From Macrostomum lignano (taxonomy: Eukaryota): a stretch of DNA of 64,000 nucleotides. The position numbers and the translations under genes were made by a program. Under the pieces are notes generated by a model, which saw only the letters and a program-made list of their open reading frames with translations, did no database searches and had not been told where the DNA came from. The stretch covers positions 310,001 through 374,000 of the forward strand of contig NIVC01000862.1 in assembly GCA_002269645.1 (NCBI GenBank), read 5' to 3'. Shown here one piece after another: positions 7,530 through 47,338 of the stretch. Numbering within the stretch: the stretch's first letter is position 1; each line of letters opens with the position of its first letter.

Positions 7530-8960
7530 ACCAATAGAATTTACAGTGCAGTCTGCACAACTCGCATTTCTTCGTCCTCATCAGCTGGCACATGGAAATG
7601 AAGACATTTCCGCAACTGAGCTGACGAATTCAGCCGAATCTTGCTTCGATGTTGTCGGACTGGATCTTCCCCATCAGGACGTAGCTAAATCCACAGCGAT
7701 CCAGCAGGTACTGAACCAGTGCGGCCATGGCTCGGCGGGTTTGACGGACAGTCCCGAATGTGTACGCTGTCCTATATTGCATCTGTCACAAAAAGTTCAG
7801 GTTTTAATAATAAATAAAAGTAAAGTGAAAAATCTATTTCAAATAATAAAAGAGGCAATAACCTTTGAGTTCTCCCACGCATCCAAGGAAGATCGGACAG
7901 GATCGCGGGTGAGATCTATCTTGTGCTTTCCGATTGTGGTTGTTCGGACATTCAGCACATTCCACAACTTGTGACAAACATCCAGAACGAACGTTGTCTG
8001 TCGAAAGCCGTAGTGCTTGAGTGCGTTAATGGTGGACTCGTCGAAGAGAGCTACGGCAAGCTGGACATAGACTTTCTCTAGGCTTGTTGGGTGCAGAACG
8101 ACGTTGGTAAGCTTGTGTGCCATTTTCACTGGCTTGTCCTCTTCCAAATGATGATCCTCTTTGGCGATGATCGGCGGAAACTTCGGGCACACGAACTCCC
8201 TCTTGAACAGAAAATTGTTGTAGAGATTATTCATATTGTGCGTGGGATCGAAGATCAAAAACAACTTTTGTCTGTTGAATTGATTCGTCACGCTAAAGTC
8301 GAGTCTACTGGAGCACAAGAAGTGCGTATAAAAACGCCTGTTCGCCGCTGCATTGTCAACCCATATGGCCACGACGTTGAATCCAATGTTAAGCAACATC
8401 GGCGTGGCTCTCAGGTAGCACTGATGCAGTGTCTCAGCCTTCAGGTTGTTCATTTGGAAAATTCCGACCAAGTCGCGGTACTTTGTCATTGCCGATGAAG
8501 CACAGAGCAGTCTGGGCAACATTTCCCTCTTCTGTGAGACCATGCAATTCTCAACCGCTGTTCTCGACCCGCTTGCTGAGATAAATCTCATCCATCAGCA
8601 GAATTACGTTGGTCTCATAGGCCTGGAGTGTATCGTAGCGCAACTTTAGCTATTCGCAGTTGCCCAGTCCTGTAGTCGAGGTCATCCTACGCGTCACACG
8701 CCTCAGCGTTTTGATTGAAGGTAGAACTAAGGAATTTGTCCCAGAACACACTGACAAGCAGCTGAACTCACGGAGAACATAATATAGGAGAATGCCAGCA
8801 GTTCTGGTGAATATCGCCGAGCATGCTTGTCCAAATCCAGCAATTTCAGCTGCTCAATCAGAAAAGTGAGGCAAGCTGAGACTGCATCAGTCACGTGGTC
8901 TTGCTGTTGGAGCACTAGTAAACTGGACCGGAAAACAGAGCGGCTTCCCAAAAATCAAAA
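7530..8960 (-). pseudogene. P-element/THAP9-like transposase pseudogene with one intron (about 7784-7862)
   Basis: RRYSPELLAFSYIMF, VILLMDEIYL, VVAIWVDNAAANRRF, IFDPTHNMNNLYNN, KVYVQLAVALFDESTINAL, and after a GT..AG intron YVLMGKIQSDNIEARFG*IRQ (the catalytic Glu motif followed by a stop). Confidence 0.85.
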
Positions 8961-16447: not shown

Positions 16448-16995
16448 TAGATTGGCTGTCTCTTGGTGGGCGCCTGTCTCTTGGTTGGCGCCTGTCTCTT
16501 GGTTGGCGCCTGTCTCTTTATGCGCCTCTCTCGGTTGGCCCCCATGTCTCTTGGTGGGCGCCCCTGTCTCTTGGTATGCGCCCCTGACTCTTGGTTGGCG
16601 CCCCTGTCTCTTGGTATGCGCCCCTGACTCTTGGTTGGCGCCCCTGTCTCTTGGTGGGCGCCCCTGTCTCTTGGTATGCGCCCCTGACTCTTGTTTGGCG
16701 CCCCTGTCTCTTGGTTGGCGCCCCTGTCTCTTGGTATGCGCCCCTGACTCTTGGTTGGCGCCCCTGTCTCTTGGTATGCGCCCCTGACTCTTGGTTGGCG
16801 CCCCTGTCTCTTGGTGGGCGCCCCTGTCTCTTGGTATGCGCCCCTGACTCTTGTTTGGCGCCCCTGTCTCTTGGTTGGCGCCCCTGTCTCTTGGTGGGCG
16901 CCCCTGTCTCTTGGTATGCACCCCTGTCTCATGGTATTCACTCCTGTCTCTAAGTGAGCGCCCCTGTCTCTTGGTTGGCACCCCTACCCCTGTCT
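16448..16995. repeat. 20-bp minisatellite (cccctgtctcttggttggcg)
   Basis: About 25 tandem copies. The same family occurs in the opposite orientation at 31025-31315. Confidence 0.92.
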
Positions 16996-17269
16996 CTTAG
17001 GCCCGATGGATGCCACGTCCAAGAGGGTTGAGCCCTTAACGTTGAGCGTCCATCTTGTTGCCTCTTTCGACTTTTGTTCAGTTTTTGGTGGAGTGAAATT
17101 TCGGTGTGGTCGAGGGGAGACGGGGGCGGACCCCTTCCCCCACCCCCCATTTACATTCGCTACTGAGTATCAGTAGTAGGAAAGTGGTACCCTCTACCGC
17201 CATCGCACGGGATTGGCCGGGGCACCCGGCCAATGAGGGGAGAGGGCGCCCCGAAGACGCCCACCCCGA

Positions 17270-17650
17270 CGCCAAACCCACCCCGACCCCCAAACCCACC
17301 CCGACCCCAAACCCACCACCCTCCACGCACCCAATCCCGACCCCAAACCCACGCACCCACCCCGACCCCAAACCAGGCCCCCTCCTGTCCTACACCCCTC
17401 CTGTCCTGCACCCCGTGCATCCCATACCAAGACCCCCTCCTGTCCTGCACCCCGTGCATCCCATACCAAGACCCCCTCCTGTCCTGCACCCCATGCATCC
17501 CATACCAAGACCCCCTCCTGTCCTACACCCCTCCTGTCCTGCACCCCGTGCATCCCATACCAAGACCCCCTCCTGTCCTGCACCCCATGCATCCCATACC
17601 AAGGCCCCCTCCTATCCTACGCCTTGCCCCATCCCATGTAGCAAGGTCCT
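17270..17650. repeat. C-rich subterminal tandem repeats (cccgaccccaaaccca and a 39-bp unit accccctcctgtcctgcaccccgtgcatcccataccaag); mirrored at 29645-30030
   Basis: Directly visible. The complementary strand is G-run rich and could form G-quadruplexes. Confidence 0.9.
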
Positions 17651-17904
17651 TCTATCCTGTACCCTAACCAAAACCAATTCCCCCTCCTAATTCCTAAACC
17701 CAAGTCTTATTACCTGTCTCACTTACCGCCTTTAAAGCTAGCCAAGGCAAAACCCTCATTCCATGCTTTGGTTGTACTGTATCTTGCTGTGGCGGGTACA
17801 GCGTGAGGTCGTTAGACCTAGAACGCTACTTCTTGGCGGCCAGAGGGCCGCAAGAAGGTCCCGCCACCTCCTGTTACGTTGATGGCTGAGACTTTGTTAA
17901 GGCC

Positions 17905-18170
17905 CGAGTTCCTGCGAAAGGGCTGCTGTGTGGGGGTTGGATTTGGGGTTCGGATTAGTTATTGCTATGGAACAGGAGCTGGTTTCTAAATGGCTGAGTG
18001 GTCCCCGGAAGGGCTCCTGATTTGCCGAGAGTTCCTGCGAGAGGGCTGTTGTGTGGGGTTGGATTCGGGGTTCGGATTGGTTATTGCTATGGAGCGGGGA
18101 TCTGGTGTTACTTACCAACTCTCGTCGTATATAATCTCGCACACAGCCGGAAGGAAAGCTCACAGTGAAC
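17905..18170 (+). promoter_or_regulatory. Putative promoter of the PC4-like gene
   Basis: Two roughly 70-bp direct repeats (about 17905-17980 and 18028-18102), the second containing an inverted CCAAT (ggattggtt). TATATAA at 18128-18134, Inr-like tcacagt at 18160-18166, and AAAATG start context at 18171-18176. Confidence 0.5.
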
Positions 18171-18173
18171 AAA

Positions 18174-18884
18174 ATGAACTTCAAGACATTATCGAACAGA
18201 TTTCGAATCGGCGTCAGGTCGCACTCGAAGTGCATCAGCATCAGAAAGTGGTACAAATTTGATGAAGAGTATCGACCAGGTCTGCCTGGCATGGAGCTCA
18301 CCGTCCACCAGTTTTGCCACTTGGGCAGCCTGAAGGAACGACTGGAAGAGTTTGCAAGAAAGTGTATCGATGCGCAATGCCTTCTGGGTGGCAACAGGCA
18401 AGTGGTTGTGCAAAATGGCGTAATCACACTCTGGCGCCTTCCAACTGTACTCGGACCGCCGGTGCACCTAAGGCACGCCTTACCGCTTCCTACAAAACTT
18501 TGGCGCGAAGTCTGGGCTCAAAAGCATTGGGTCCTAGACAAAATTGACAAGCGAGAACCTCCAGTCAAGCCACCGATCGGCGATCCATGGTGGATGGGAT
18601 ACCACCCTACGGAGCCTGAAGAGTGTGCAGCATGGGCAGCAAGGCTTACACTCGACCAACTTATACAAGTACCTGACAGGCAGCCGGCAGAGTGGGACGA
18701 CCACTGGGAGGCTTTCCAGGCAGTTCAGGCTGAATTTAGAAAGAGATTTGCATCCGAAACTCTGGAAGAGCCATCAACAGCTGAGAAGAACCAACAGCCT
18801 TCATGCCACCAGCCACCAATGAAGCGACGCGCAATGCGTGAAGCGAAACTGGTCATTTCGTCAAGTAACTTTTTTTTAATATAG
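18174..18884 (+). CDS. PC4/Sub1 (transcriptional coactivator p15)-like ssDNA-binding domain protein carried by the Maverick
   Basis: LSNRFRIGVRSHSKCISIRKWYKFDEEYRPGLPGMELTVHQFCHLGSLKERLEEFARK aligns by eye to the PC4 core ([58 protein letters not shown]), followed by a Trp/Pro-rich C-terminal region. ATG at 18174; the ORF track starts at GTG 18165. Confidence 0.75.
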   Translation: MNFKTLSNRFRIGVRSHSKCISIRKWYKFDEEYRPGLPGMELTVHQFCHLGSLKERLEEFARKCIDAQCLLGGNRQVVVQNGVITLWRLPTVLGPPVHLRHALPLPTKLWREVWAQKHWVLDKIDKREPPVKPPIGDPWWMGYHPTEPEECAAWAARLTLDQLIQVPDRQPAEWDDHWEAFQAVQAEFRKRFASETLEEPSTAEKNQQPSCHQPPMKRRAMREAKLVISSSNFFLI

Positions 18885-19300
18885 TTTTGAACCATAGTAC
18901 TGATCATGCACTGTTGTATATACTGCTTTGTCAATACTGGCTATAATATTGCCCCATGATGCTTTAATTTCTTGCGATAATACCTGTTTTGTAAATACAC
19001 GTGACGGGCCTTAATACTGCCCTTCCATTCTTCATAAACTTTTTTTGTGCTAATAGGAGCTTTTAACATGTAATTTTATGCTTTGCAATCCATGGACCTG
19101 CCAATAAAATAAACAAAAAAAACGTTTCATTTTTGTAAGCATTGTTGCACAAACATTGTTGCATTCGCGTTTATTTTTTCTTATCTTTTGTACACAAAAA
19201 ATACAGAAGTAAAGTTATAGGAAAAATATTATTATTATTATTATTATTATTACTCTGTGCATAGGCAGATCTCACTACTACTGTTATGCCGTAGAGGAGC

Positions 19301-19899
19301 TCAGTCAGAGTCCAGCAAAGTAGGTTCGGATGCTTGGTCTGCATGCAAAATGCGGGAGAGGGCATCAGCTGCAGTCTGAGCCTCAACCACGCTGCGAGCA
19401 CCAGCTATTATACAGCGATATGAATGAAACAAAATCAACTTTACAGAAGCAGTAAACTCGAGCACAAGTCCGTTAAACATTTCCGGCTCGTAGGTGGCCC
19501 GATGCGGCCATTTAGACTTGACTTCCCCCAACCGGAGTGGATGCCGACCCGCGGGAAAGGCGTCACAGAGGTAATAGTCTTGATGCGAATCTGGGGCAGA
19601 CTGGTCAATCGCAAGAAGTCTGCACACAGCTTCACAATCTTCTCTGTCTCTGCGAGAGCTTCCTCCATGCTTTTGGCTCCACAGACAGACACTTGTCCGG
19701 TCGGATACACCAGCGCGGTTACTCGATGCTGCCCGCTCTTCATCACCACAGCCAGTGTTCGAGGATGAACCAGGCGATGGCGGATTGTGTGATACTGAGG
19801 CAGATGAAGAGTCAGGAAATTCGCTAGTTGAGGCAGACCCACCCGGGTCGCCAGGTCGGCTCCTGTCACGATGTTTGTCACGCGAATTGTTGCGACCAT
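19301..19899 (-). CDS. Divergent TATA-binding protein (TBP)-like gene; 199 aa once a 1-nt deletion at about 19561 is restored from the right arm
   Basis: Both TBP repeats are recognisable: IRVTNIVTGADL, TALVYPTGQVSVCGAKSMEEA, HPLRL, ATYEPEMFNGLVLEF, VKLILFHSYRCIIAGARS. The right-arm copy reads through the site in frame. Confidence 0.9.
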
Positions 19900-20392
19900 C
19901 TTTAGACAATCGAGAGAAACGCCAGTGCCTGCTGCAGATCGCTACTTTTATAGACCCGTAGCCGCGAGGCCGCAGCCAATCAGCGTACAGCGCCACCTTG
20001 GCCAGGGCGCAGGGTAGCACGTACTTCGAGGCACTCGGAAAGGCCAGGTGTGCGAGGTCGTAGACAGGCTGTAGCAGCAGACGCGACAGGAACTGGCACT
20101 TGACATCCCCCTTGCTGAATATCGGGCCTTGCAAGTGGGAGATATCGCTCCAGAGACAAGAGTAGGGTCGGAACCCACTCCTGTCCCAGTCTAGACCGTG
20201 CCGCTTATTGGTGAGCCAGTAGCAGGTTCGTCGCTGTCCTCGATCAAAGAGCTCAAAGCTGTGCGGCGGTCGGTAGCAATAGTAATGAGCCGTCGTTTGA
20301 CCGCATGCAAACTCAACCCATGCAATTTCCTTAATCACAAAGTCCTCTGTTTTGTAGAGGTGCGGAAATCCTTCAAAATCAATGACAATCAT
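19512..20392 (-). CDS. DEDD/RNase H-fold exonuclease-like Maverick protein
   Basis: MIVIDFEGF..FVIKEIA..YRPP..WLT..HGLDW..SKGDVK..CALAKV..DW. The ATG overlaps the upstream stop (ATGA). The 3' end is uncertain because the frame runs on over the TBP N-terminal half to a stop at 19512, inferred from the right arm. Confidence 0.7.
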
Positions 20393-20985
20393 CTTGGCCA
20401 CTTGATCCACTTGCCGTATCCTTTCTGAGACTGAGTCTTCTTATAGCCTTGCAGTCGAGGTTTTTTAGGACTGGACTTTTCTTCCCGAGGCTTTTCCAGC
20501 AATTTTGTAGTGTTCAGACCAACTGCAGACAGAGGCACGTGGTTTTCTTGAAGACACGTAACAAACTCATTAATCCCATTCGGTGGCTGAAGGTACTTAG
20601 AGTACGTATCTTTAACTATGAAATTCAGCAGGTCCACGATATTTGAGTTGTACAACGGTTTACCATTGACAGAAACTTCATACGTATCATCTATGCTAAT
20701 CGACTTGCACTTTACGGTTATGAAGCTAATCAATGCCTGCAGACGATGATGCCATTTCTGATTCACCGTCAGATATAAAACCTCCTTCCACTGCGGTTCT
20801 TTGTGAATTACTGGAGGCTGTTCTTGGGTCGCACTTGCCTGCAGCTGCTGCACGCAACGCTCGTCCCTAATCTTGCGCAACTGTTTTTCCGCCTCTAGCT
20901 CGGGTTCACAGACTGTCTCCATGCCCCTCTGATTCACAAGTGCCTCATACTGCAACCGGGGTACCAGTATCATTTCCTTGTACAT
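20389..20985 (-). CDS. Conserved Maverick hypothetical protein
   Basis: KEMILVP...EVSVNGKPLYNSNIVDLL..PPNGINEFVTCLQENHVPLSAVG, a pattern I recognise from Maverick core blocks. Intact 198-aa ORF. Confidence 0.7.
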   Translation of the reverse strand: MYKEMILVPRLQYEALVNQRGMETVCEPELEAEKQLRKIRDERCVQQLQASATQEQPPVIHKEPQWKEVLYLTVNQKWHHRLQALISFITVKCKSISIDDTYEVSVNGKPLYNSNIVDLLNFIVKDTYSKYLQPPNGINEFVTCLQENHVPLSAVGLNTTKLLEKPREEKSSPKKPRLQGYKKTQSQKGYGKWIKWPR

Positions 20986-21277
20986 GTCTTTTTATATAGG
21001 TGAGAATCAGAGGAAGACAACGAAGGATATGCGGGTGTGAGAGATTACGCCGAGCCTCTTTCACACTTTTGCTTTGTGCAACAAGCCGGAGAGTATTTCG
21101 ATATCGCCTGAGTCTCCGCTTCAAGCTATCTTCACAGCCAACTTTTCCTGCTAGTAAGTTGATAATACACTCGACCAAAAAGCAAATGGTGCTTTTATTT
21201 GCATAGGTAAGTATGCAGCGACGCAAGGATATAGTGCCCTCACAAAAGACAGTTATTAGTGCAATGTGTTTATCCAT
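20945..21277 (-). CDS. Small basic conserved Maverick protein
   Basis: RRCIL..A....ICFLVECIINLLAGKV..LKRRLRRYRNTLR; located directly downstream of the ATPase. Confidence 0.7.
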   Translation of the reverse strand: MDKHIALITVFCEGTISLRRCILTYANKSTICFLVECIINLLAGKVGCEDSLKRRLRRYRNTLRLVAQSKSVKEARRNLSHPHILRCLPLILTYIKRHVQGNDTGTPVAV

Positions 21278-21307
21278 GTTTAACTCAGTGCAGATACTGA
21301 GCCATTC

Positions 21308-21966
21308 TTATAGATAAACTCGCTGCGGGGCCTCATCGGGGAGAAAATTGGCTCTCAGGCGCAGTTCATGGGGTGAAGCGGGGTGAAAATCAAGCAGCAG
21401 ATAGCGCTGATCTCCATCTCGCACCAATCGATCCATCAGTTCTACTAGCAGAGTGCGCCGTTTGGGAAAGCATTGCTGACTTAAAGCTTGGACCGCAGAG
21501 GTGTCTCTGGGGTTGTTGAACAACACATGTAGGTGCAATTTATGCTAATTGTGCGCCACTCTCTGCCTTTGAAAAATAGATTTTGCGTGATGAGAATGAC
21601 AAAGCAGGGCTTGTGGTGGGCCTCACGGGTGAACAGATGTCGTAGCTCTCGACTTGCAGCTGCTTCATCCAGTAAATCGTCAATCACAATCAGGTCATGG
21701 GGCTGCAGATCCAAATTCGATAATCCTTCACATACTTGCACTCCTAGCCGCCGCAGAGTCGCGTGGAGTTCCGGCTGCGGGCATCCGTGATACCAAATCA
21801 TCCGCTTGGGAGGTTGGTCGAACAGAAGCAGTCGTTGGGACAGCAACCGCAAACAGAATGTTGATTTTCCCGCTCGAGAAGGGCCCGAAACCATCATGCA
21901 GCCTCCCATCCGCAGTCTGGAATCAAACACCTTGCAACTGATTTTTGAGTCTGAGTATGATTGCAT
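21308..21966 (-). CDS. A32/FtsK-like genome-packaging ATPase (1-nt frameshift near 21526)
   Basis: Walker A GPSRAGKST, Walker B LIVIDD, VILITQNLF, and after the shift VLFNNPRD and YLLLDFHP. Confidence 0.93.
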
Positions 21967-22396
21967 CGTTTTGAGCCACAGCTGCCGGGTGCAAAACCTT
22001 GATGAACAAGGCATTATATGACATTCTCTTATGTAGTCGATGGATCAAGTAAAAAATGCAATACCAGCCGCATAGAGTTGACGAACTGGGCTGAACAGGG
22101 ACCGTATTCCATTGCAGCACCATCCGCGTCGGTTTAGTTTTCTTTAACCAGCTCTTCATATTTTTACTCAAGCCTCCCAAAGAGTTGAAAATTTCACAAT
22201 GCACTTTACTTGTTACTACTCCAGCAATCCAGTGACCGCACTCATCATTCCATGGCTCATACAAAATGAAACAGCAGGGTCGGCAGGTTGAATCGAAAAA
22301 TGGTGTCACTGTTCCAACTGTAAAAATTCCGCAATAGGCATCCCACACAGCTGTGGGGCAGCGAGAAATGAACGCTTCCAACTCTTCGGAATTCAT
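21923..22396 (-). CDS. Adenain-like cysteine protease
   Basis: GHWIA, EIFNSLG, PVQPSSSTLCGWYCIFYL. Confidence 0.9.
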   Translation of the reverse strand: MNSEELEAFISRCPTAVWDAYCGIFTVGTVTPFFDSTCRPCCFILYEPWNDECGHWIAGVVTSKVHCEIFNSLGGLSKNMKSWLKKTKPTRMVLQWNTVPVQPSSSTLCGWYCIFYLIHRLHKRMSYNALFIKVLHPAAVAQNDAIILRLKNQLQGV

Positions 22397-23663
22397 GCTC
22401 TGCGATAATCCAGCAGCACATCCCTCTCTTTAGTGATTTCCATGCATGAATCATACACGCACAAGCAGATGAGTGTGACTGGCTGTGCGAGAGCGTTGGA
22501 AAAGCGAATATCCAGTCGTAGTTGACCCTGCCTATGACCAAACCAGCTGCCTACTTCATCGCCACTTGGACTAAGGTCAAACGCAAGCAGATAGGCACTA
22601 TCTCGATATTCATCAAAGCTCATGCAATAGTTTCCACCGAGACTGCGGGCAAACTGCAAAAATTCGGATGAGTGCTGCTGCTGTGGTTCTATGGGCTGCC
22701 CAGTAATTGGCTGTCCATTGACAAACAGGCTTAAACTATTCAATCCAAATGCTTGGAACCAAAACGGGTTGTGGTGCAGAGATCCATTGAAAGCTGTCTG
22801 GCTGACCATGCCAAGGAGCACAAATTTTGGCAGCTGACCATGCGTGATTGAATCGAGACTCTTGTTTCTTGTCCCAACAGAAAATGTGAATGTCTGAAGC
22901 TCTCTTCTATCAAAGTGGTAGAGAGCATTACGCTGTGAGAGCCCCTGTTCATGTGCGAAGCCACTGTTGGGTTTACTCGGAGACGCCTCAAAAGCAGAAT
23001 AGCATTGTCGACTTCAATACGATATTGAACTCCATTATTGGGTACCATCAACGAAAAAGCGCTGCAATGCCGGGTCAATTTGACCTGCAGGCTGATTTGG
23101 TTTAGCAGATACTGCCGGATTGAGAAAATGTCTGAAAACAACGGGCCGGCATATTGCACAACAGCAGAAGCCTCATGCAATCTCGCACGATTTGTGAATC
23201 CATGATTTTGCTCCCCAATGGTGTCACTCTCTCCAGCGGTGTCTGGATAATAACCTGCGGCCGCCAGTTCTTGAAGCTGGTTGGCATTGCTGCTGGTCAG
23301 CACTTGAAGCATTGCTCGATATGGGTAGAGCTGGTCCCCACCACTCACAACCCGCTGGTTGAGTTTTACAGTGACATCACGAAACAGGCTGGCAAGCGGG
23401 AGATTCGATAGTCCGACATGGGCATCATCTTCATTAGTCAGCTCTGCATTGTTTATCACACGAGTTATCCGGCAAGTGACTTGCAGCACTGTGGCGTGCA
23501 GATCGGTGTAGTCCTCAGAGGAGGCATGGCAGTCGAATTCAATCGGTGCATCAGGAGTCGTGAGACTGCCGATGGGATGAAAGTCCATGAAGTGAGACCT
23601 ATCCACTCCAATTTCATGCGTCATTGGCTCAAACAGGTTGAGCCGTGGATTTGTCCGATACAT
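22393..23663 (-). CDS. Double jelly-roll major capsid protein (1-nt frameshift near 22943)
   Basis: LNLFEP..PIEF..DYTDL..LASLFRDVTVKLN..YPYRA..YYPDTAG..GQLPK..AFNGSLHHNPF..AFDLSP..GQLRLDIRFSNAL..DVLLDY. Restoring one G in the GGGG run gives RGLSQRNALYHFDRRE in frame. Confidence 0.92.
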
Positions 23664-23933
23664 TATGAGAGTGAATCGAGCACTCGGTTGACTGTTTTTA
23701 ACGGTATCTTGCGCTTTTTTTTTGGGCACTGGCTTGCTCTTCTTTGGTTTGATTTTTGGCGTCTTCTTATGTTTTCTTTTTTTCTGCGATGGAGGTGGTA
23801 TGCGGGAAAGGAGAACTGCATTTTCATGAGTCTCAGGGGGCAGTCGAGATAGCAGCGATGTGGGATATCCGTGCCCATGAGGAAGTTTGAAGCAACTGCC
23901 TCGATAAAACTCGGTCACTTGTCGAATGTCCAT
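23664..23933 (-). CDS. Lys-rich putative core (DNA-condensing) protein, in frame with the major capsid protein
   Basis: YRGSCFKLPHGHG motif and a QKKRKHKKTPKIKPKKSKPVPKKK tail. No stop before the MCP start. Confidence 0.45.
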
Positions 23934-24697
23934 GACTCACGCAGCTCAAAAGTCAAGACTGTGGGCCCAAAGAGTAATCGAATGGATTCGATGCAGTTGA
24001 TCGGTCGTAGCCGTATTTGCATGTGTGTTAAGCGGTGGTTTGCTGCTATTTGGAAGAACAGCTTATTCTTATAGATGAGTTCCGACCGGTGACCCTGCAA
24101 AAGACCACCAATATTCAAAGTCTGCAGTGCTGGAGTAAACTGATTTCCAATACAGCGCGGGCTAATCTGATCGCACTCAACAAGCAGCAAATCTGTATTC
24201 CAGGCCGGGTTCATGCCAGGTCGTTCAAAGCAACCTGCCTGCTCGCTATAGGTTGTCTGCTCAGCACCAAAAATTTTCCCCAGCTGGCTGTTTTCTGGAA
24301 AGATAAATCTCCCACAGATCCCAGCCATTTGATAGTATACATAATGGCTAACTGAATCAAGGGTAAATTTAATTAGATGCACATTTATAGGTGTTTCGCC
24401 AATTCCAGACTCATCAAAATCTTTTACAATCAGTAAAGCATTTACTGCATCAATCAGCTCATTCAAGTCATTGTAGCGCCCAGCTGGAATTTCAGCACAT
24501 TGCATTGAACCCTCAAGCTGATAAAATAGCGACAACGGATGAGGGATGGTGTAGATGCAGTTGATAAAACTGATTCCAAGCAGACCCAACTCATAATCCA
24601 AAGCAAAATCCAGCAGCACAGGATGCAGCAGCTCAGCAGTAAAGTTGGCCGGGTCATCATCGGGGCCGGACATTACCTGAAATCTTTGCCTTTTCAT
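23915..24697 (-). CDS. Minor capsid (penton-like) protein
   Basis: NFTAELLHPVLL..YELGL..EIPAGRY..LNELIDAVN..LLVECDQI..GPTVLTFELR; lies between the integrase and MCP. Confidence 0.8.
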   Translation of the reverse strand: MKRQRFQVMSGPDDDPANFTAELLHPVLLDFALDYELGLLGISFINCIYTIPHPLSLFYQLEGSMQCAEIPAGRYNDLNELIDAVNALLIVKDFDESGIGETPINVHLIKFTLDSVSHYVYYQMAGICGRFIFPENSQLGKIFGAEQTTYSEQAGCFERPGMNPAWNTDLLLVECDQISPRCIGNQFTPALQTLNIGGLLQGHRSELIYKNKLFFQIAANHRLTHMQIRLRPINCIESIRLLFGPTVLTFELRESWTFDK

Positions 24698-25670
24698 ATT
24701 TTTCTTAAGTCTTTTTCGTCAATCCAACTGGGTTTTTCTGAATCGCGCCACTGAACCAAATACCGAATCTTTCCACTCTTCAGCTTCTTAATGTTGAGAA
24801 CCTTGTCGATGATCCACAGCTTCTTGTTTCCAGTCACTTGCTGCATTTCCGGCTCGTAAAACTTGCCTTCCAACTCTTCTCCTCGGGCATCGATCAGAGT
24901 GTACATGTATGGATAATGCTTGGGGTGGAGGGACTTGACTTCAAATACTTCCTCACTCCATCCCCTTGTGTATCCCTTGGTGAATGGGTTGGTCGGATTG
25001 CGAAGAGAGATTCGCACCATCATTCCTGCCTTGAACTTTGGTCTGGAGACCTTTTCACGAGTCTCAGGAAGCTTCCCATCGTAGAGCCGGTGCCAAATTT
25101 CCATCTCGTTTGACTTGTCGACATCAACTGGTCGGCTTTGAATACTCCGATGAATACTATGGTTGAAGGCCTTCACTAGGGCTGAAGCACATCGGTCCAG
25201 GTTAATGTTGACTTGTGACGGAAGTACCGCCACATTCGGGATTTCAGTGTGCGGTTCCATCTCTCAATGACTGCGCATTTCTGGTCACTACTTGATGTGA
25301 ATGCATGAATTTTGTGGTTTACGCAGAGGGCTCGGAACTGGGTGTTGCAAAACTCTTTTCCGCGGTCGGTCCGAACTGCTCGTGGGCATCCAGGGTGAGC
25401 TCGATTTAGGATCGCTTCGAATCCGGCTGCAACCTCCTCGGCTGTCTTGCGGCGCACCGGCTGAGCCCAGGCAAACTTGCTGAGCACATCGATGCAGCAT
25501 AAAATGTATCGCATGCCGCCATTGTACTTGGCGAACGGCAGCATTTCAACCAGGTCCAGTTCCCACTGGTCATCCATGCCCCGCACCACAATCGGTGCTC
25601 GACGAAAGTTTTTGCGTTTATCTCTATGCAGTGTGTAGACATCTTGGTCTTGTAGCCACGTTTTTACCTT
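24694..25670 (-). CDS. Retroviral-type (rve) integrase with C-terminal chromodomain-like region; N-terminus truncated; 1-nt frameshift near 25180
   Basis: KVKTWLQDQDVYTLH, DQWELDL, RYILCCIDVLSKFAWA, RTDRGKEF, AVIERWNRTLK, YNHSIHRSI and IDKVL..RYLVQW..SW. An in-frame TAG lies just upstream of KVKTW. Confidence 0.92.
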
Positions 25671-25724
25671 TAGTGTGAAAACTGGAAATTGCTAGCAACT
25701 AAAAACCTAAGCTGGAATTTTCTA

Positions 25725-26766
25725 GAAAATCATTGGTTTAGGAGTATATCGTATATACATACCTGCCCTACACTAAACTTGGGCCCGTGCTGTTTGTGCA
25801 ACTCTCGATTTAATGCCTGATAGCCGCCATAGCTGCCCGGCCTACTGCAGTCAAAATAAATACCTGGCAGAATTTTGGAAATTGCCTTTTTCTTTTTCAT
25901 TTTACCAAATTTCTAGTACCTATCATTTTCTTATGCCAAACACCTGGCTTGAAAAAAAACTACCCACCCCGACCCATTTCTGCGGATTTAGCGTTTCTAG
26001 CCTCTGTTGTGCACGAAAAATCATGCATTTTTGCATAAAATACATACATTTCAATGGGAATTTTTACCCGAATGTGTGCACGAAAAACCTCGACACTTTG
26101 CATACTTTTTAACACTGTGCACGAAAACTTGCATACTTGTGCACAAAATAAATGTTGTTCAATAGGGATTTTTACTCGAACCTGTGCATGAAAATTGACG
26201 CATGTTGTCAAAAAAGTCACGTCATATTGCGCACTTTTAATCACTGTGCACGAAAACTTACATACTCGTGTACAAAATACAAACATTTCAATGAGAATTT
26301 TAACCCAGAGATGTGCACAAAAATGACTCATTATGGTAAAAATATTAATGTGAAAGAACAATTTTCTCTCCTGCAGTGTATCAAATATCATTAAGTAAAG
26401 GATGGATTTATTATTATTCAAAATATAGTATATTCGCATTAAATTCACATGCACATAGTTAAAAATTAAAGATATGTGAAAAGAATGTTATTGTGAGAAA
26501 AAGAGCTTGCTAGTGTCCAGATCGCACTGGCCGACACTGGCTTGTCATCTTGAGAACGTGCACCAGAACTAAATCCCGGTTGAAAATCTTCTGGTCGCGG
26601 AATGCTGACTTGGCCACAGGCTTTGAATTGACCAGTCGGTAGCTCACTTGCTTGCGAACATTCTCTAGGGTCTACAGGGAGTTGTTTAGCGGCCCGTTGT
26701 CTTTCTTGAACTCATTCTTGGCCTTTTGCACGACGCTCCATGCGGTAGATAATAAACAGCGGTCGA
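25725..26766. other. Unique AT-rich spacer at the centre of the palindrome; probably foreign transposon-derived DNA
   Basis: About three degenerate repeats of roughly 135 bp rich in tgtgcacgaaaa (25995-26330), plus a stop-containing coding-like fragment on the minus strand (26520-26760). No pPolB motifs. Confidence 0.55.
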
Positions 26767-26820
26767 TAGAAAATTCCAGCTTAGGTTTTTAGTTGCTAGC
26801 AATTTCCAGTTTTCACACTA

Positions 26821-27448
26821 AAGGTAAAAACGTGGCTACAAGACCAAGATGTCTACACACTGCATAGAGATAAACGCAAAAACTTTCGTCGAGCACCGAT
26901 TGTGGTGCGGGGCATGGATGACCAGTGGGAACTGGACCTGGTTGAAATGCTGCCGTTCGCCAAGTACAATGGCGGCATGCGATACATTTTATGCTGCATC
27001 GATGTGCTCAGCAAGTTTGCCTGGGCTCAGCCGGTGCGCCGCAAGACAGCCGAGGAGGTTGCAGCCGGATTCGAAGCGATCCTAAATCGAGCTCACCCTG
27101 GATGCCCACGAGCAGTTCGGACCGACCGCGGAAAAGAGTTTTGCAACACCCAGTTCCGAGCCCTCTGCGTAAACCACAAAATTCATGCATTCACATCAAG
27201 TAGTGACCAGAAATGCGCAGTCATTGAGAGATGGAACCGCACACTGAAATCCCGAATGTGGCGGTACTTCCGTCACAAGTCAACATTAACCTGGACCGAT
27301 GTGCTTCAGCCCCTAGTGAAGGCCTACAACCATAGTATTCATCGGAGTATTCAAAGCCGACCAGTTGATGTCGACAAGTCAAACGAGATGGAAATTTGGC
27401 ACCGGCTTTACGATGGGAAGCTTCCTGAGACTCGTGAAAAGGTCTCCA
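26821..27448 (+). pseudogene. Second, inverted, 3'-truncated integrase copy
   Basis: 26767-27448 is the reverse complement of 25044-25724. It reads through the left-copy frameshift (DVLQPLVKAYNH) and breaks after EKVS. Confidence 0.92.
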
Positions 27449-27452
27449 CCGG

Positions 27453-27995
27453 GTGGGTCTGCCACAACTAGCGAATTTCCTGACTCTTCATCTGCCTCAG
27501 TATCACACAATCCGCCATCGCCTGGTTCATCCTCGAACACTGGCTGTGGTGATGAAGAGCGGGCAGCATCGAGTAACCGCGCTGGTGTATCCGACCGGGC
27601 AAGTGTCTGTCTGTGGAGCCAAAAGCATGGAGGAAGCTCTCGCAGAGACAGAGAAGATTGTGAAGCTGTGTACAGACTTCTTGCGATTGACCAGTCTGCC
27701 CCAGATTCGCATCAAGACTATTACCTCTGTGACGACCTTTCCCGCGGGTCGGCATCCACTCCGGTTGGGGGAAGTCAAGTCTAAATGGCCGCATCGGGCC
27801 ACCTACGAGCCGGAAATGTTTAACGGACTTGTGCTCGAGTTTACTGCTTCTGTAAAGTTGATTTTGTTTCATTCATATCGCTGTATAATAGCTGGTGCTC
27901 GCAGCGTGGTTGAGGCTCAGACTGCAGCTGATGCCCTCTCCCGCATTTTGCATGCAGACCAAGCATCCGAACCTACTTTGCTGGACTCTGACTGA
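27453..27995 (+). CDS. TBP-like gene, second copy (frame intact, first 18 or so codons missing)
   Basis: Continuous 180-aa frame from GLPQLANF to EPTLLDSD containing both TBP repeats except the first strand. Confidence 0.85.
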   Translation: MGLPQLANFLTLHLPQYHTIRHRLVHPRTLAVVMKSGQHRVTALVYPTGQVSVCGAKSMEEALAETEKIVKLCTDFLRLTSLPQIRIKTITSVTTFPAGRHPLRLGEVKSKWPHRATYEPEMFNGLVLEFTASVKLILFHSYRCIIAGARSVVEAQTAADALSRILHADQASEPTLLDSD

Positions 27996-28427
27996 GCTCC
28001 TCTACGGCATAACAGTAGTAGTGAGATCTGCCTATGCACAGAGTAATAATAATAATAATAATAATAATATTTTTCCTATAACTTTACTTCTGTATTTTTT
28101 GTGTACAAAAGATAAGAAAAAATAAACGCGAATGCAACAATGTTTGTGCAACAATGCTTACAAAAATGAAACGTTTTTTTTGTTTATTTTATTGGCAGGT
28201 CCATGGATTGCAAAGCATAAAATTACATGTTAAAAGCTCCTATTAGCACAAAAAAAGTTTATGAAGAATGGAAGGGCAGTATTAAGGCCCGTCACGTGTA
28301 TTTACAAAACAGGTATTATCGCAAGAAATTAAAGCATCATGGGGCAATATTATAGCCAGTATTGACAAAGCAGTATATACAACAGTGCATGATCAGTACT
28401 ATGGTTCAAAACTATATTAAAAAAAAG

Positions 28428-29123
28428 TTACTTGACGAAATGACCAGTTGTCGCTTCACGCATTGCGCGTCGCTTCATTGGTGGCTGGTGGCATGAAGGC
28501 TGTTGGTTCTTCTCAGCTGTTGATGGCTCTTCCAGAGTTTCGGATGCAAATCTCTTTCTAAATTCAGCCTGAACTGCCTGGAAAGCCTCCCAGTGGTCGT
28601 CCCACTCTGCCGGCTGCCTGTCAGGTACTTGTATAAGTTGGTCGAGTGTAAGCCTTGCTGCCCATGCTGCACACTCTTCAGGCTCCGTAGGGTGGTATCC
28701 CATCCACCATGGATCGCCGATCGGTGGCTTGACTGGAGGTTCTCGCTTGTCAATTTTGTCTAGGACCCAATGCTTTTGAGCCCAGACTTCGCGCCAAAGT
28801 TTTGTAGGAAGCGGTAAGGCGTGCCTTAGGTGCACCGGCGGTCCGAGTACAGTTGGAAGGCGCCAGAGTGTGATTACGCCATTTTGCACAACCACTTGCC
28901 TGTTGCCACCCAGAAGGCATTGCGCATCGATACACTTTCTTGCAAACTCTTCCAGTCGTTCCTTCAGGCTGCCCAAGTGGCAAAACTGGTGGACGGTGAG
29001 CTCCATGCCAGGCAGACCTGGTCGATACTCTTCATCAAATTTGTACCACTTTCTGATGCTGATGCACTTCGAGTGCGACCTGACGCCGATTCGAAATCTG
29101 TTCGATAATGTCTTGAAGTTCAT
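28428..29123 (-). CDS. PC4-like gene, second copy
   Basis: Identical to the left copy except for the extreme C-terminus (ATTGHFVK* versus AKLVISSSNFFLI*), caused by a 1-nt indel. Confidence 0.75.
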   Translation of the reverse strand: MNFKTLSNRFRIGVRSHSKCISIRKWYKFDEEYRPGLPGMELTVHQFCHLGSLKERLEEFARKCIDAQCLLGGNRQVVVQNGVITLWRLPTVLGPPVHLRHALPLPTKLWREVWAQKHWVLDKIDKREPPVKPPIGDPWWMGYHPTEPEECAAWAARLTLDQLIQVPDRQPAEWDDHWEAFQAVQAEFRKRFASETLEEPSTAEKNQQPSCHQPPMKRRAMREATTGHFVK

Positions 29124-30360
29124 TTTGTTCACTGTGAGCTTTCCTTCCGGCTGTGTGCGAGATTATATACGACGAGAGTTGGTAAGTAACACCAGATCCC
29201 GCTCCATAGCAATAACCAATCCGAACCCCGAATCCAACCCCACACAACAGCCCTCTCGCAGGAACTCTCGGCAAATCAGGAGCCCTTCCGGGGACCACTC
29301 AGCCATTTAGAAACCAGCTCCTGTTCCATAGCAATAACTAATCCGAACCCCAAATCCAACCCCCACACAGCAGCCCTTTCGCAGGAACTCGGGCCTTAAC
29401 AAAGTCTCAGCCATCAACGTAACAGGAGGTGGCGGGACCTTCTTGCAGCCCTCTGGCCGCCAAGAAGTAGCGTTCTAGGTCTAACGACCTCACGCTGTAC
29501 CCGCCACAGCAAGATACAGTACAACCAAAGCATGGAATGAGGGTTTTGCCTTGGCTAGCTTTAAAGGCGGTAAGTGAGACAGGTAATAAGACTTGGGTTT
29601 AGGAATTAGGAGGGGGAATTGGTTTTGGTTAGGGTACAGGATAGAAAGACCTTGCTACATGGAATGGGGCAAGGCGTAGGATAGGAGGGGGCCTTGGTAT
29701 GGGATGCATGGGGTGCAGGACAGGAGGGGGTCTTGGTATGGGATGCACGGGGTGCAGGACAGGAGGGGTGTAGGACAGGAGGGGGTCTTGGTATGGGATG
29801 CATGGGGTGCAGGACAGGAGGGGGTCTTGGTATGGGATGCACGGGGTGCAGGACAGGAGGGGGTCTTGGTATGGGATGCACGGGGTGCAGGACAGGAGGG
29901 GTGTAGGACAGGAGGGGGCCTGGTTTGGGGTCGGGGGTGGGTGCGTGGGTTTGGGGTCGGGATTGGGTGCGTGGAGGGTGGTGGGTTTGGGGTCGGGGTG
30001 GGTTTGGGGGTCGGGGTGGGTTTGGCGTCGGGGTGGGCGTCTTCGGGGCGCCCTCTCCCCTCATTGGCCGGGTGCCCCGGCCAATCCCGTGCGATGGCGG
30101 TAGAGGGTACCACTTTCCTACTACTAGTATCTTACCATTAGCGTTTGATTCATTTGATGTCTGTCTGCAGATTCTCTTCTATTAACTTTCGTAAGAAATC
30201 TCAGAACTTTTTTTTTTTTCCATTGTTTTTCTCCCTGTATAAGTCTAGTTTATTTCCGAATATCAAACTTTGTACTTTTCCTGGTCTTCAAATGGTTTAC
30301 TTACCTTATTATTTGAACTCTGCTCCATTTTGTGCTTTTACTTATTGTAGATAACATCTC

Positions 30361-32650
30361 ATGATGGACCTGACATCATCATCGTGGCTGCAGAACAAAA
30401 GTGAGTAATTGATTATGGTTATTTATGCCTTTCTACTCAGCATACCATTCAGCCCCTAATTCGATTTAATTGGTGAATTGGTCTAAAATTTGCCCTGACA
30501 CACAGTAAGAAGCGATTCCCCCCCATAAAACTGGTTTATACGATCTCCGATAGTCCACCTCTAGAATCTCCCATAATCCACATCTAGAAACTCTCATAAT
30601 CCGTCTCTAGAATCTCCCATAATCCGCCTCTAGAATCTCTCATAATCCACCTCTAGAATCTCCCATAATCCACCTGTAGAATCTCCTATAATCCGCCTCT
30701 AGAATCTCCATAATCCACCTCTAGAATCTCCCATAATCCACCTCTAGAATCTCCCATAATCCACCTCTAGAATCTCCCATAATGCACCCGTAGAATCTCC
30801 CATAACCAAGCCACATTCGTTGACATAGCCATTTCCATGCTAATCGCGGTTGTAATTGTTCAATCTGTCAATCAAGGCGATACAGATCTGCCGTTTCCCG
30901 TCATGTCTTCTGATCCGAAGGCTCAACAAGAACTGCTTGATTGCAACTACGCAAAACGATTTAGCCTTGACGAGGCCAGATCTGGTCGAAGTAAGTTGCT
31001 AAACACTTTGATACACCAAGGGATAGGGGCACCCACCAAAGAGACAGTGGCGCCCACCAAGAGACAGGAGCGCCAACCAAGAGACAGTGGCGCCCACCAA
31101 GAGGCAGGGGCGCCAACCAAGAGACAGGGGCGCCAACAAAGAGACAGTAGCGCCAACAAAGAGACAGGAGCGCCAACAAAGAGACAGGAGCGCCAACAAA
31201 GGGACAGGAGCGCCAACAAAGAGACAGGAGCGCCAACAAAGAGACAGGAGCGCCAACAAAGAGACAGGAGCGCCAACAAAGAGACAGGGGGGCCAACAAA
31301 GAGACAGGGGGGCGTATAGATGTGTATCTTAAAAAATTTTGATAAACTGATAACTTTTCAAAGACATTGTTTACAATTTTTTAGCCGACAGAAAAATCCG
31401 TGTTTACTGCGACGGCTGTTTCGATTTGTTTCACTTCGGTCACATGAGAGTGCTGCTGCAAGCCAAGTACCTGCTGCCCAATGCCTATCTTATTGCCGGA
31501 GGTCAGTACAAAATCTGTGCTCAAACCTTAGAAAATTTTAACATTTTTTCAACATCTCTATAAAAGTGTCCTAACTACTCTACTACAAGTAGAAATATAA
31601 AAGTATCTGTAAATATTCGTTTTACGGCTCCGTTCTATGTAAATTTGTTTTCAGTAGCAACCGACAGCCAGGTGCGGCAGTGCAAGGGTGTCAGCCCAAT
31701 TATGACAAGGCAAGAACGGCTGGCCTCCGTGGCCATGCTGTCCTTCGTCGATGAGCTGCTTGACGACCCGCCCATGCTGCCAACTCCAGAGTTTTGCAAC
31801 GGGTATAAGGTGAGACAGGCTGACAGATTACTAGCTAAGAGGTGTATTGAAATGACCTCTAATTCAGTGACAATATCTAACCCTATTTCCTGTTCATAAT
31901 CGACACTAGGCACCCTGATGATAATGCAATTCTTATCCACTAAATAGGAAAATAGCCTAGCTAATTCCCCTGAAGAGAATGCCCTAATCCCCTAAAGATA
32001 ATCCCCTAATCCCTGAAAAGAATCCCCTAATCATCTGAAGAGAATCCCCCTAATTCCCGAGGAGAATCCCCTTAATCCCCCAAAAATTTCTCTTATACCC
32101 GAAGATAATCCCCTAATCCCCGAAAAGAATTCCCCTAATAATCTGAAAATAATCCCCTCTAATCCCCCTAATCCCCGAAGAGAATTCCCCTCATCTCCTG
32201 AAGAGAATTCCCCTAATACCCTGAAGATAATTTCTCTAACCACTTTAAGAGAATTAGCCTCCTAATCCTGCGAAGAGAATCCCCCTAATCCCCTGAGGTG
32301 AATTTCTCTAATCCCTGAAAAGAATTCTCCTAATCCGACTAATAGAATTCCCCTAGTCCTCTGAAGAGAATTCCCCTAATTCTCCAGAGCGAGAATATCA
32401 CGCAGCCGCCTTCAAGGGTCTAGATCATAGATAAATGCGCTCGTACATTTTTCAGATCGACTTCGTGGCTCACGACGCCATCCCGTACATCTCATGCCTG
32501 CCACCTGAAGAGACCTACGAGTGGGCCAAACGGGCCGGAATGTTCCTGGAAACGAAACGAACCGACAGCATTTCGACAACGAACCTGATTGATCGAATAG
32601 TTCGTCGGCGCGACGAAATCGCTAATTGTCGTCCTCAAAAGCACCAGTAG
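30361..32650 (+). CDS. PCYT1: Choline-phosphate cytidylyltransferase (CCT)-like; exons 30361-30400, 30886-30990, 31385-31501, 31655-31809, 32456-32650
   Basis: Spliced product contains [16 protein letters not shown] (HxGH), IDFVAHD and [17 protein letters not shown]. All four introns are GT-AG with compatible phases (1,1,1,0). Confidence 0.9.
30555..30805. repeat. 23-bp minisatellite (ctagaatctcccataatccacct) in PCYT1 intron 1
   Basis: About 11 tandem copies. Confidence 0.9.
31025..31315. repeat. 20-bp minisatellite (gcgccaacaaagagacagga) in PCYT1 intron 2
   Basis: Reverse-complement relative of the 16448-16995 array. Confidence 0.9.
31965..32390. repeat. Degenerate gaagagaattcccctaat repeats in PCYT1 intron 4
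   Basis: Directly visible. Confidence 0.8.
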
Positions 32651-43335: not shown

Positions 43336-43989
43336 GGTAAAAACATAGGAGACGAAGACTACTAGGCAAATGAATTTCCTCGCTACAAGTTGAAGGTTTC
43401 GAAAGTAAGTCTTCAATTCTCGTAAAAATTCAAATGACAAGTATTTCAAGTTTCTAACACTGGAGCAGCAAAATGTTCATAAAAAATAACAATTACACTT
43501 TCAAGAGGCTTGCAGCTGAGTAAAACGCAAAATCTCCCTTTTTTCAGTTCCCTGCTTTTAAGAAGCAGCAAAAGTCTTTAATTAACTGAGACAGACAGGC
43601 TCTGGTCGCAGGATTTCCTCTCATCCAGTGTCTCCTTCAGCTGCATCCGAGTATTCGAATATCGATTTGAGAAATATAATTAAAAACCAAGGAAATACCT
43701 TCGTAGCTGAAAAAAAAATTGTAATTACAGATTGACTTTACTTGGACTGGCGTATGCCTTAGCAACCAAATAGGACGAGGGGCTTCAAAGGGAAAATGTG
43801 ATCTAGACAGGAACTTCATCAACCATAGGAGTAACTCTCGCTCAAGCCTAGGCAGTGGATTTTAAAAATTCGAGTTAATTTTTTTGATAAAACTGCTGCT
43901 TTTTCACGAGTTGGTCAACTGCAGTTGAATTTCTCTGCAGTTCTATCTGAGAGATCAAAATCTCACGTTTTGAGATTTCTTTCCTTATC

Positions 43990-45010
43990 TCTCCCTGTCA
44001 CTCTCTTGTCTCTACCTGTCACTATCTCGTCTCTCCCTGTCACTCTCTGGTCTCTACCTGTCACTCTCTGGTCTCTACCTGTCACTCTCTTGTCTCTACC
44101 TGTCACTCTCTCGTCTCTACCTGTCACTCTCTTGTCTCTACCTGTCACTCTCCTGTCTCTACCTGTCACTCTCTTGTCTCTACCTGTCACTCTCTTGTCT
44201 CTTCCTGTCACTCTCTGTCACTCTCTCGTCTCTACCTGTCACTCTCTTGTCTCTCCCTGTCACTCTCTTGTCTCTACCTGTCACTCTCTTGTCTCTACCT
44301 GTCACTCTCTTGTCTCTACCTGTCACTCTCTTGTCTCTACCTGTCACTCTCTTGTCTCTTCCTGTCACTCTCTGTCACTCTCTCGTCTCTACCTGTCACT
44401 CTCTTGTCTCTCCCTGTCACTCTCTTGTCTCTACCTGTCACTCTCTGGTCTCTACCTGTCACTCTCTCGTCTCTACCTGTCACTCTCTCGTCTCTCCCTG
44501 TCACTCTCTTGTCTCTACCTGTCACTCTCTTGTCTCTACCTGTCACTCTCTTGTCTCTACCTGTCACTCTCTTGTCTCTTCCTGTCACTCTCTGTCACTC
44601 TCTCGTCTCTCTCGTCTCTCCATGTCATTCTCTCTTCTCTCCCTGTCACTCTCTGTCACTCTCTCGTCTCTCCCTGTCACTCCCTGTCACTCTCTCGTCT
44701 CTCCCTGTCACTCCCTGTCACTCTCTCGTCTCTCCCTGTCACTCCCTGTCACTCTCTCGTCTCTCCCTGTCACTCCCTGTCACTCTCTCGTCTCTCCCTG
44801 TCACTCCCTGTCACTCTCTCGTCTCTCCCTGTCACTCCCTGTCACTCTCTCGTCTCTCCCTGTCACTCCCTGTCACTCTCTCGTCTCTCCCTGTCACTCC
44901 CTGTCACTCTCTTGTCTCTCCCTGTCACTCCCTGTCACTCTCTCGTCTCTCCCTGTCACTCCCTGTCACTCTCTCGTCTCTCCCTGTCACTCCCTGTCAC
45001 TCTCTTGTCT
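43990..45010. repeat. Pyrimidine-rich 21-bp minisatellite (tctctacctgtcactctcttg) and variants
   Basis: Directly visible. Confidence 0.9.
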
Positions 45011-45409
45011 ATCATTGTCTTTCTTTTCTCTCCGCAACAACTCGCATCGCTTATTCTAACACTCAAATCATGGCGAATCATTTGCAGTTGAAAACCCTAA
45101 AATACACCCTACGCTTTAATTAAAATTTAGACGCATAAACAAAAATATTTGTCCAAAGCCGACGGCCATGTTTGGGACCCCGACAGGGACCCGGTCCACT
45201 CGAATCTTCAAGCCTGCCTCACGCGATTTCCTTGCCCCAGCGCACCTGCTAATTAGAATTTACTGTACAGTTGCAGGAGGCAGCTGCATGGTCACTAATT
45301 AAACAGGCCACTGCGGATCTGGCTCAGTTTGAGAGTGGAAAATAGAAATTATATCAATCAGCTTCCTGCACCTACTCTCCAGTCTCTACCCTCCATTCTC
45401 TACCCTCAA

Positions 45410-45790
45410 CTCACTTCTCTCCACTCTCTACTCTCCACTCTCCACCCTCCACTCTCCACCCTCCACTCTCCACCCTCCACTCTCCACCCTCCACTCTCCA
45501 CCCTCCACTCTCCACCCTCCACTCTCCACCCTCCACTCTCCACCCTCCACTCTCCACTCTCCACTCTCCACCCTCCACTCTCCACCCTCCACTCTCCACC
45601 CTCCACTCTCCACCCTCCACTCTCCACCCTCCACTCTCCACCCTCCACTCTCCACCCTCCACTCTCCACCCTCCACTCTCCACCCTCCACTCTCCACCCT
45701 CCACTCTCCACCCTCCACTCTCCACCCTCCACTCTCCACCCTCCACTCTCCACCCTCCACTCTCCACCCTCCACTCTCCACCCTCCACTC
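45410..45790. repeat. (ctccaccctccact)n 14-bp array on the left flank of the LINE
   Basis: Directly visible; same array and orientation as 49420-49860. Confidence 0.92.
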
Positions 45791-45791
45791 T

Positions 45792-47310: not shown

Positions 47311-47338
47311 CGAGTGGTCCGCGCAGCTTCCTGCTGGT

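Follow-up and report, generated by a model that had tools for sequence, protein, structure and literature searches.

Among the closest described counterparts to the locus considered here is the late transcription system of beta- and gammaherpesviruses, whose viral TATA-binding proteins (TBPs), BcRF1 of EBV, ORF24 of KSHV and UL87 of HCMV, go with TATT boxes (PMC4893493, accessible sections). As far as those sections describe it, that system shares with the Maverick element analyzed below the lack of a viral RNA polymerase, the possession of a TBP-like protein, and a division between variant and canonical TATA boxes, which in herpesviruses separates late from early genes and in the element separates core from terminal genes, that is, by gene class and not by timing. 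The herpesvirus TBP is far more divergent (~10% identity) and belongs to a six-protein complex, whereas the element encodes a bare TBP core of 190-200 aa; it binds the Pol II CTD (PMC7498053, in the portion available), whereas the element protein keeps the TFIIB-docking glutamates; and its box is TATT, whereas that of the element is of a TAAG type. No homologue of the other five vPIC proteins was recognised among the element ORFs scanned against Pfam. By analogy the element may work like the herpesvirus vPIC, but with neither the TATT sequence nor the six-protein complex it is not a member of that class.

The TBP/TFIIB pairs of Nucleocytoviricota, including poxvirus VITF-3, are viral TBP-fold transcription factors like that of the element (PMC7221094 and PMC12917281, available parts). 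According to the available part of PMC7221094, their TBPs act together with a viral RNA polymerase and, in most cases, a viral TFIIB, and have diverged at the TFIIB-docking positions, whereas the element has neither viral protein.

Mavericks/Polintons (adintoviruses, MELD viruses) share with the element their termini, 6-bp target-site duplication (TSD), polymerase and integrase and, as putative genes of the element, ATPase, protease and capsid block. Vertebrate members have eight core genes, of which pz and pw are uncharacterised, and the accessible text of the paper that describes them gives no promoter motif (PMC8097293). One MELD virus is labeled as carrying a TBP-like gene (PMC8502044, 10.1101/697771, parts of both), a search of one PMC8502044 supplement gave no hits, and VLTF3 has been reported in some coral polintoviruses, in a source available in part. 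TBP is absent by term from PMC11161782, PMC10748475, PMC11131425, PMC12220804, 10.64898/2026.10.13.758929 and 10.64898/2026.06.19.733378, and PC4 from the four of these in which that term was sought; the 'PC4' of PMC11662393 is a cluster label. Nothing in the literature searched ties a Maverick TBP to a promoter motif or describes a Maverick PC4-like gene, although subscription papers, Repbase notes, figures and bioRxiv supplements may hold such annotation.

A sequence-only reading of the present locus had proposed that neighboring PC4-like and TBP-like genes form one self-contained module able to switch an element from early to late expression of its capsid genes. In our analysis that module was over-read, and a better lead is the combination of an element TBP and a variant promoter box.

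A rearranged Maverick insertion and its PC4-like and TBP-like genes

The window is a stretch of 64,000 nucleotides from Macrostomum lignano. At 17172..30125 it holds a Maverick/Polinton insertion, a rearranged and polymerase-deleted copy recognized by its AGTAGT...ACTACT ends and its integrase, ATPase and protease matches. Terminal inverted repeats with AGT ends are accompanied by a 6-bp TSD (17166-17171 and 30126-30131), a retroviral-like integrase (Pfam rve, E 1e-12) and a protein-primed polymerase of the B type (DNA_pol_B_2, E 7e-14 in element family B and 0.0026 in family A), of which the window keeps a remnant. The core genes all lie on the minus strand: ORF-D (19910..20392); two conserved ORFs of 198 and 110 aa (20389..21277); packaging-type ATPase and adenain-like protease genes (21481..22396), both weak Pfam matches; a broken major capsid gene, a small ORF and a minor capsid gene (22393..24697); and a broken integrase with a chromodomain (24694..25691, Pfam rve and Chromo). 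The polymerase remnant (26503..26725, also minus) was found by tblastn with a query that itself matches DNA_pol_B_2 weakly. The capsid genes have no Pfam match and are named by size and order, labels that lean besides on what we take to be the usual Maverick gene order. None of nine element proteins matched in PHROGs.

The right arm (26767-30125) is a fold-back derivative with the TSD intact. In it the left 2.7 kb recurs in inverted form (27449..30125, 99.6% identical to 17172-19846), joined to an inverted integrase piece (26767-27448), and it carries a second PC4-like gene (28428-29123, minus strand) and a second TBP-like gene without its 5' end (27450-27995, plus strand). Related 20-nt minisatellites lie in inverted orientation on both sides of the element (16456-16985 and 31033-31308), many further tandem arrays occupy 43900-58900, and a 250-aa ORF outside the element (7839-8591) has a weak transposase RNase H N-terminal match.

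Both homologues of basal transcription factors are indeed neighbors within this one virus-like transposon, and the promoter features previously described for the PC4-like gene are in place. The gene (18174..18884, plus strand, 236 aa) is preceded by a TATATAA at 18128-18134, the sole one in 17800-18174, and by an Inr-like TCACAGT at 18160-18166; upstream of these on the same strand, a 78-nt element is duplicated (17906-17983 versus 18029-18106, 88.6% identity over 79 columns). Among 27 family A loci examined, the TATA box is identical in all 19 copies with the start located. In copy C110 the PC4-like promoter is duplicated in front of the polymerase gene too. Four contig sets guessed to be RNA give thin, patchy cover across the element, with one contig beginning at 18167; none of the source records of the listed matches is on record as RNA.

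The PC4-like ORF is borne out by a predicted model, fold matches and alignment. Its Pfam PC4 match (E 5.9e-5) scores 22.9 bits, below the gathering cut-off of 25 bits that its family B relatives, 27-36% identical to family A, exceed. In the predicted model two PC4-fold repeats, each of four strands plus a helix, occupy residues 1-125 and are followed by a small helical acidic region and a basic C-terminal motif; alignment shows these last two conserved in families A and B. The best fold match is Pur-alpha (Z 10.5, rmsd 4.0 over 118 residues), and the human PC4 ssDNA-binding domain superimposes on the model with an rmsd of 1.4 over 63 residues. As modeled, the protein is a tandem PC4 pseudo-dimer in one chain. 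It has the fold common to the ssDNA-binding family of PC4/Sub1, the phage T5 homologue, Pur-alpha, Whirly and MRP1/2; like Pur-alpha it has two repeats per chain, but its sequence is nearer PC4 (first repeat ~25% identical to PC4/Sub1), and it lacks the long low-complexity N-terminus of host PC4. Among family B pairs of the PC4-like gene, dN is 0.10-0.37 and synonymous sites are saturated in 9 of 10. As a lead only, the ESM Atlas has Mollusca clusters with PC4 that are 116-120 aa long and a 74-aa cluster in Preplasmiviricota (score 0.87).

The TBP-like gene converges on the PC4-like gene and starts at 19899 as previously reported; its coding sequence, however, runs from 19899 to 19301 on the minus strand with a broken frame. 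The frame changes near 19555-19560, so the two TBP lobes give two Pfam matches in two frames, and in 18 of 26 other family A copies examined both lobes lie in a single open frame. A TATAAAA box at 19946..19952 (minus strand), missing from the earlier account, is found in 24 of the 25 family A copies with the start located. The spacer between the two genes (18885..19300, 32% GC) is AT-rich and has the AATAAA signals claimed on both strands (19103 on plus, 19170 on minus), but chance put them on both strands in 24% of 2000 Markov-simulated spacers, so the pair is weak on its own.

The model of the TBP-like protein (pLDDT 89) matches solved TBPs in Foldseek at E 3e-12 and ~22% identity, and in this prediction it folds as a full two-lobe TBP with the saddle shape. 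Family B proteins are 35-40% identical to those of family A. Across 10 family B pairs, pairwise dN/dS is 0.14-0.34, and at the level of sequence the gene is under purifying selection. Host TBP is a separate gene, ~25% identical. Capture of a host gene in the window copy was rejected, host TBP, TRF2-like and PC4 being separate loci that are ~25% identical to the element TBP; each of these three host genes is present as three near-identical loci (L081-L092, L111-L113). A quick IQ-TREE search set 12 element-type TBP-like rows apart from 43 others with support of 90, on branches so long that the donor cannot be named.

At the DNA-contacting surface the protein departs from canonical TBPs, in which we take four intercalating phenylalanines and two central asparagines to be the relevant positions. 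The C-lobe phenylalanine pair is kept, the N-lobe pair is replaced (by Tyr, and by Trp, Thr or Ile), and Thr or Ser takes the place of the C-lobe asparagine. The change from Phe to Tyr at N-lobe position L5.1 is found in families A, B and E, and change at this residue is reported to affect TATA binding (PMC7221094, available part). The same part of that paper gives two glutamates of the YEPE loop, an acidic loop of the C-lobe, as TFIIB contacts; viral TBPs, several of them accompanied by a viral TFIIB, have typically diverged at these positions. Both glutamates are invariant across 24 alignment rows, 14 of them element-type, and do not vary within families A and B. Family E has mostly lost the first and has the second constant. 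No TFIIB family match was found among the element ORFs scanned against Pfam.

ORF-D is the constant upstream neighbor of the TBP-like gene in families A and B, overlapping or abutting it, and frame changes fuse the two in some copies. Searches of Pfam, PHROGs and the PDB gave no match that belongs to it, and the description 'DEDD-like' is our assumption from an N-terminal motif only. ORF-D may be the real partner of the TBP-like gene.

Gene order across Maverick families

The co-occurrence and synteny across Maverick families on which a two-gene module would depend are found in part. Both genes occur in families A and B, but they are adjacent in A only, and no PC4-like gene was detected in family E and no TBP-like gene in family F beyond the single neighboring places counted below; with adjacency confined to one family and each gene occurring in a family where the other was not detected, a single self-contained module is not supported. 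Counts of places per family come from match lists, hand-collapsed to one start per place, and the gene orders of families A and B from nine regions plus one degraded. In family A, to which the window copy belongs, the convergent pair is found at 34 of 37 TBP-like places among the matches listed, and the order runs from the terminus through the polymerase and a core block ending in ORF-D and the TBP-like gene to a PC4-like gene facing back. In family B the order is terminus, PC4-like gene, the same core block, and then the polymerase facing back. The adjacency in A therefore reflects a central core block flipped relative to the two terminal genes, and convergence is a family trait. In family B the two genes are ~7.5 kb apart; among the matches listed, the PC4-like gene is 4-17 kb upstream of the TBP-like gene at 57 of 106 places and within 3 kb at none. 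An assembly artefact as the source of the gene pair is ruled out by its recurrence at the 34 listed family A places.

The TBP-like protein of family E is very divergent (HH probability 87%), with relatives that have Pfam TBP. Among the matches listed its gene is upstream of an E-type capsid gene at 34 of 69 places and near a listed PC4-like gene at one of the 69; the PC4 profile found no match in three fetched copies, and two leading family E ORFs considered as PC4-like were rejected by profile comparison. One family E element (L167:2315-9336) has deoxynucleoside kinase and dUTPase genes (Pfam) beside its TBP-like and polymerase genes, and five identical copies have no ATG near the 5' end of the TBP-like frame (an intron or a lesion). 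Family F (L153-L158; G000 C173, C491) is abundant; its elements measure 9-10 kb and have 1-kb inverted repeats, a PC4-like gene and a fragmented polymerase. Among the matches listed, the PC4-like gene is divergent from the polymerase at 27 of 53 places, and one of the 53 has a listed TBP-like gene nearby. No integrase gene was seen in L153-L158 and no capsid genes in the two copies read, which may be deletion derivatives. Family C (L144-L146; G000 C506) has neither gene by profile; one of its ORFs has a weak adenovirus protein X match, and TATAAA stands 6-20 nt before several of its ATGs. A further capsid family (30-31% identity) is present, and family F also has long forms.

Relatives outside the Macrostomum genome are few and on short contigs. 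IMG/VR scanned with TBP-like, PC4-like, ATPase and capsid sequences yielded none, nor did JGI metagenomes with the TBP alignment; the ATPase alignment found 6 JGI contigs, too short to judge TBP presence.

These gene orders bear on whether the PC4-like protein is an early coactivator working with the element TBP at late promoters, which would make the two parts of one switch whatever their order. Such a role would fit the co-occurrence in families A and B, the canonical TATA box of the PC4-like gene, the acidic helical region and basic tail conserved in both families, and the function of host PC4 as a transcription cofactor (PMC7549692, part available); it fits poorly with adjacency in A only, with the single listed PC4-like neighbor and lack of profile matches in family E, with a family F gene that travels with the polymerase, and with a one-chain tandem fold unlike host PC4, and we consider it unlikely. 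A complex prediction for the two proteins scored 0.00 in two runs made without alignments, a result that speaks neither for nor against such a pairing. The PC4 homologue of phage T5 serves replication (same part of PMC7549692), and together with the fold matches and the divergent PC4-like and polymerase genes of family F this suggests that the PC4-like protein is more likely a DNA-replication helper than a partner of the TBP-like protein.

A TAAG-type box upstream of most core genes

Comparison of the regions upstream of every gene separates two promoter types: most core genes have a TAAG-type box, and a canonical TATA box precedes the PC4-like gene and the polymerase gene. TAAGAA is the top hexamer, present in 20 of 29 core upstream intervals from two family B copies and the window copy, and on the coding strand only (strand counts 9/0, 9/0, 6/0, 6/0); the five PC4-like and polymerase starts have TATAWA and lack TAAGAA. 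The motif was identified post hoc, and against synonymous-codon randomisation, in which every protein sequence was held constant, its presence in 8/10 and 7/10 family B intervals gave p<=0.0005 and in 5/9 family A intervals p=0.008. Some boxes are intergenic, and across the others every one of the three reading frames is represented. In the window, all on the minus strand, TAAGAA lies 51 nt before ORF-D (20438..20443), 33 nt before the 110-aa ORF (21305..21310) and at 23764, 24066, 24702 and 24785 in the capsid gene region, and a variant box, CATAAGAG, lies inside the ATPase/protease gene region (22026-22033). The two core genes that have no TAAG box in families A and B, the protease and the ORF of 198-230 aa, either overlap the preceding gene or lie close behind it, which suggests coupled translation.

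The consensus has TAAG as its core and reads C/T-T/A-TAAGAA in families A and B and TAAGCA in family E, where TAAGCA is found in 7/8 intervals and TAAGAA in 0/8. In family C, the sole TBP-less, capsid-bearing control and a distant, AT-rich one, TAAGAA, TATAAG and CTTAAG are each found in 0/10. TBP-less family F has TAAGAA with strand bias (7/0 and 8/1) inside a repeated GATAAGAAATT unit, which lies between the PC4-like and polymerase genes.

It is important to consider whether the TAAG boxes are ordinary TATA boxes that have drifted and are read by host TBP, in which case the TBP-like protein would act otherwise, by sequestering TFIIB or TBP regulators and so dampening host transcription, or by bending terminal DNA. 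Family A boxes (CTATAAGAA) differ little from a normal TATA box, and among related metagenome Mavericks three contigs (L180, L182, L183) have canonical TATAAATAC at equivalent places and one has TAAGAA forms, so host TBP may read the boxes; moreover, the several altered DNA-contact positions of the TBP-like protein could mean that binding has been lost. However, family B boxes (CTTAAGAA) are far from TATAWAWR in elements that have perfect TATA boxes at their terminal genes, each TBP-like family goes with its own box variant, and both C-lobe phenylalanines are kept; we judge this reading improbable. The TBP-like gene of family B itself sits behind CTTAAGAA in 15/15, which under a switch driven by the element TBP would need priming by another route.

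TAAG is also recognized in late promoters by the baculovirus polymerase (PMC4893493, accessible sections) and is the core of all element boxes, which raises the idea of a baculovirus-type late start motif for the RNA polymerase of a large helper virus, with the element as its satellite and the TBP-like protein as an accessory. Because the boxes grade into TATA-like forms (TATAAGAA, TATAAGC, TATAAATAC) and track a TBP-fold gene, we give this idea very little weight.

A candidate early-to-late switch

The TAAG promoter motif and the conserved TFIIB-docking residues strengthen the idea of an element TBP in an early-to-late switch for capsid genes, the part of the sequence-only reading that outlives the joint PC4 module. 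In the mechanism we favor, the terminal, inward-facing PC4-like and polymerase genes, with their canonical TATA boxes, would be transcribed first through host TBP. The element TBP-like protein would then bind the TAAG box before individual core genes (integrase, capsid, ATPase and others) and dock host TFIIB through its retained acidic loop, whereupon host Pol II would transcribe them. The tandem PC4-like protein would be a one-chain ssDNA-binding or unwinding factor, made early with the protein-primed polymerase and serving strand-displacement replication. We hold with moderate confidence that the element TBP redirects host Pol II to late promoters and that the PC4-like protein has a separate, early role in replication. 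This two-function reading is built on observed folds, residues, selection, gene orders and motif enrichment, from which we infer DNA binding, TFIIB docking, timing and the two functions themselves. A bolder version is possible but doubtful. In it a one-protein orthogonal TBP, co-evolved with its own box (TAAGAA or TAAGCA by family) and using host TFIIB, would run an early-to-late transcription cascade smaller than any other known to be self-encoded by a eukaryotic DNA element, and the tandem PC4 protein, made early, would couple displaced-strand replication to the onset of capsid-gene transcription.

Maverick virions have not been observed, according to the accessible text of PMC8097293. The present locus bears on the timing of gene expression in Mavericks, which have no RNA polymerase, and a TBP with its matching box provides a direct test. 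If the favored mechanism is true, it would be evidence for a staged viral programme, herpesviruses and Mavericks would have converged on a 'private TATA box', and Maverick families would offer natural altered-specificity TBP-promoter pairs.
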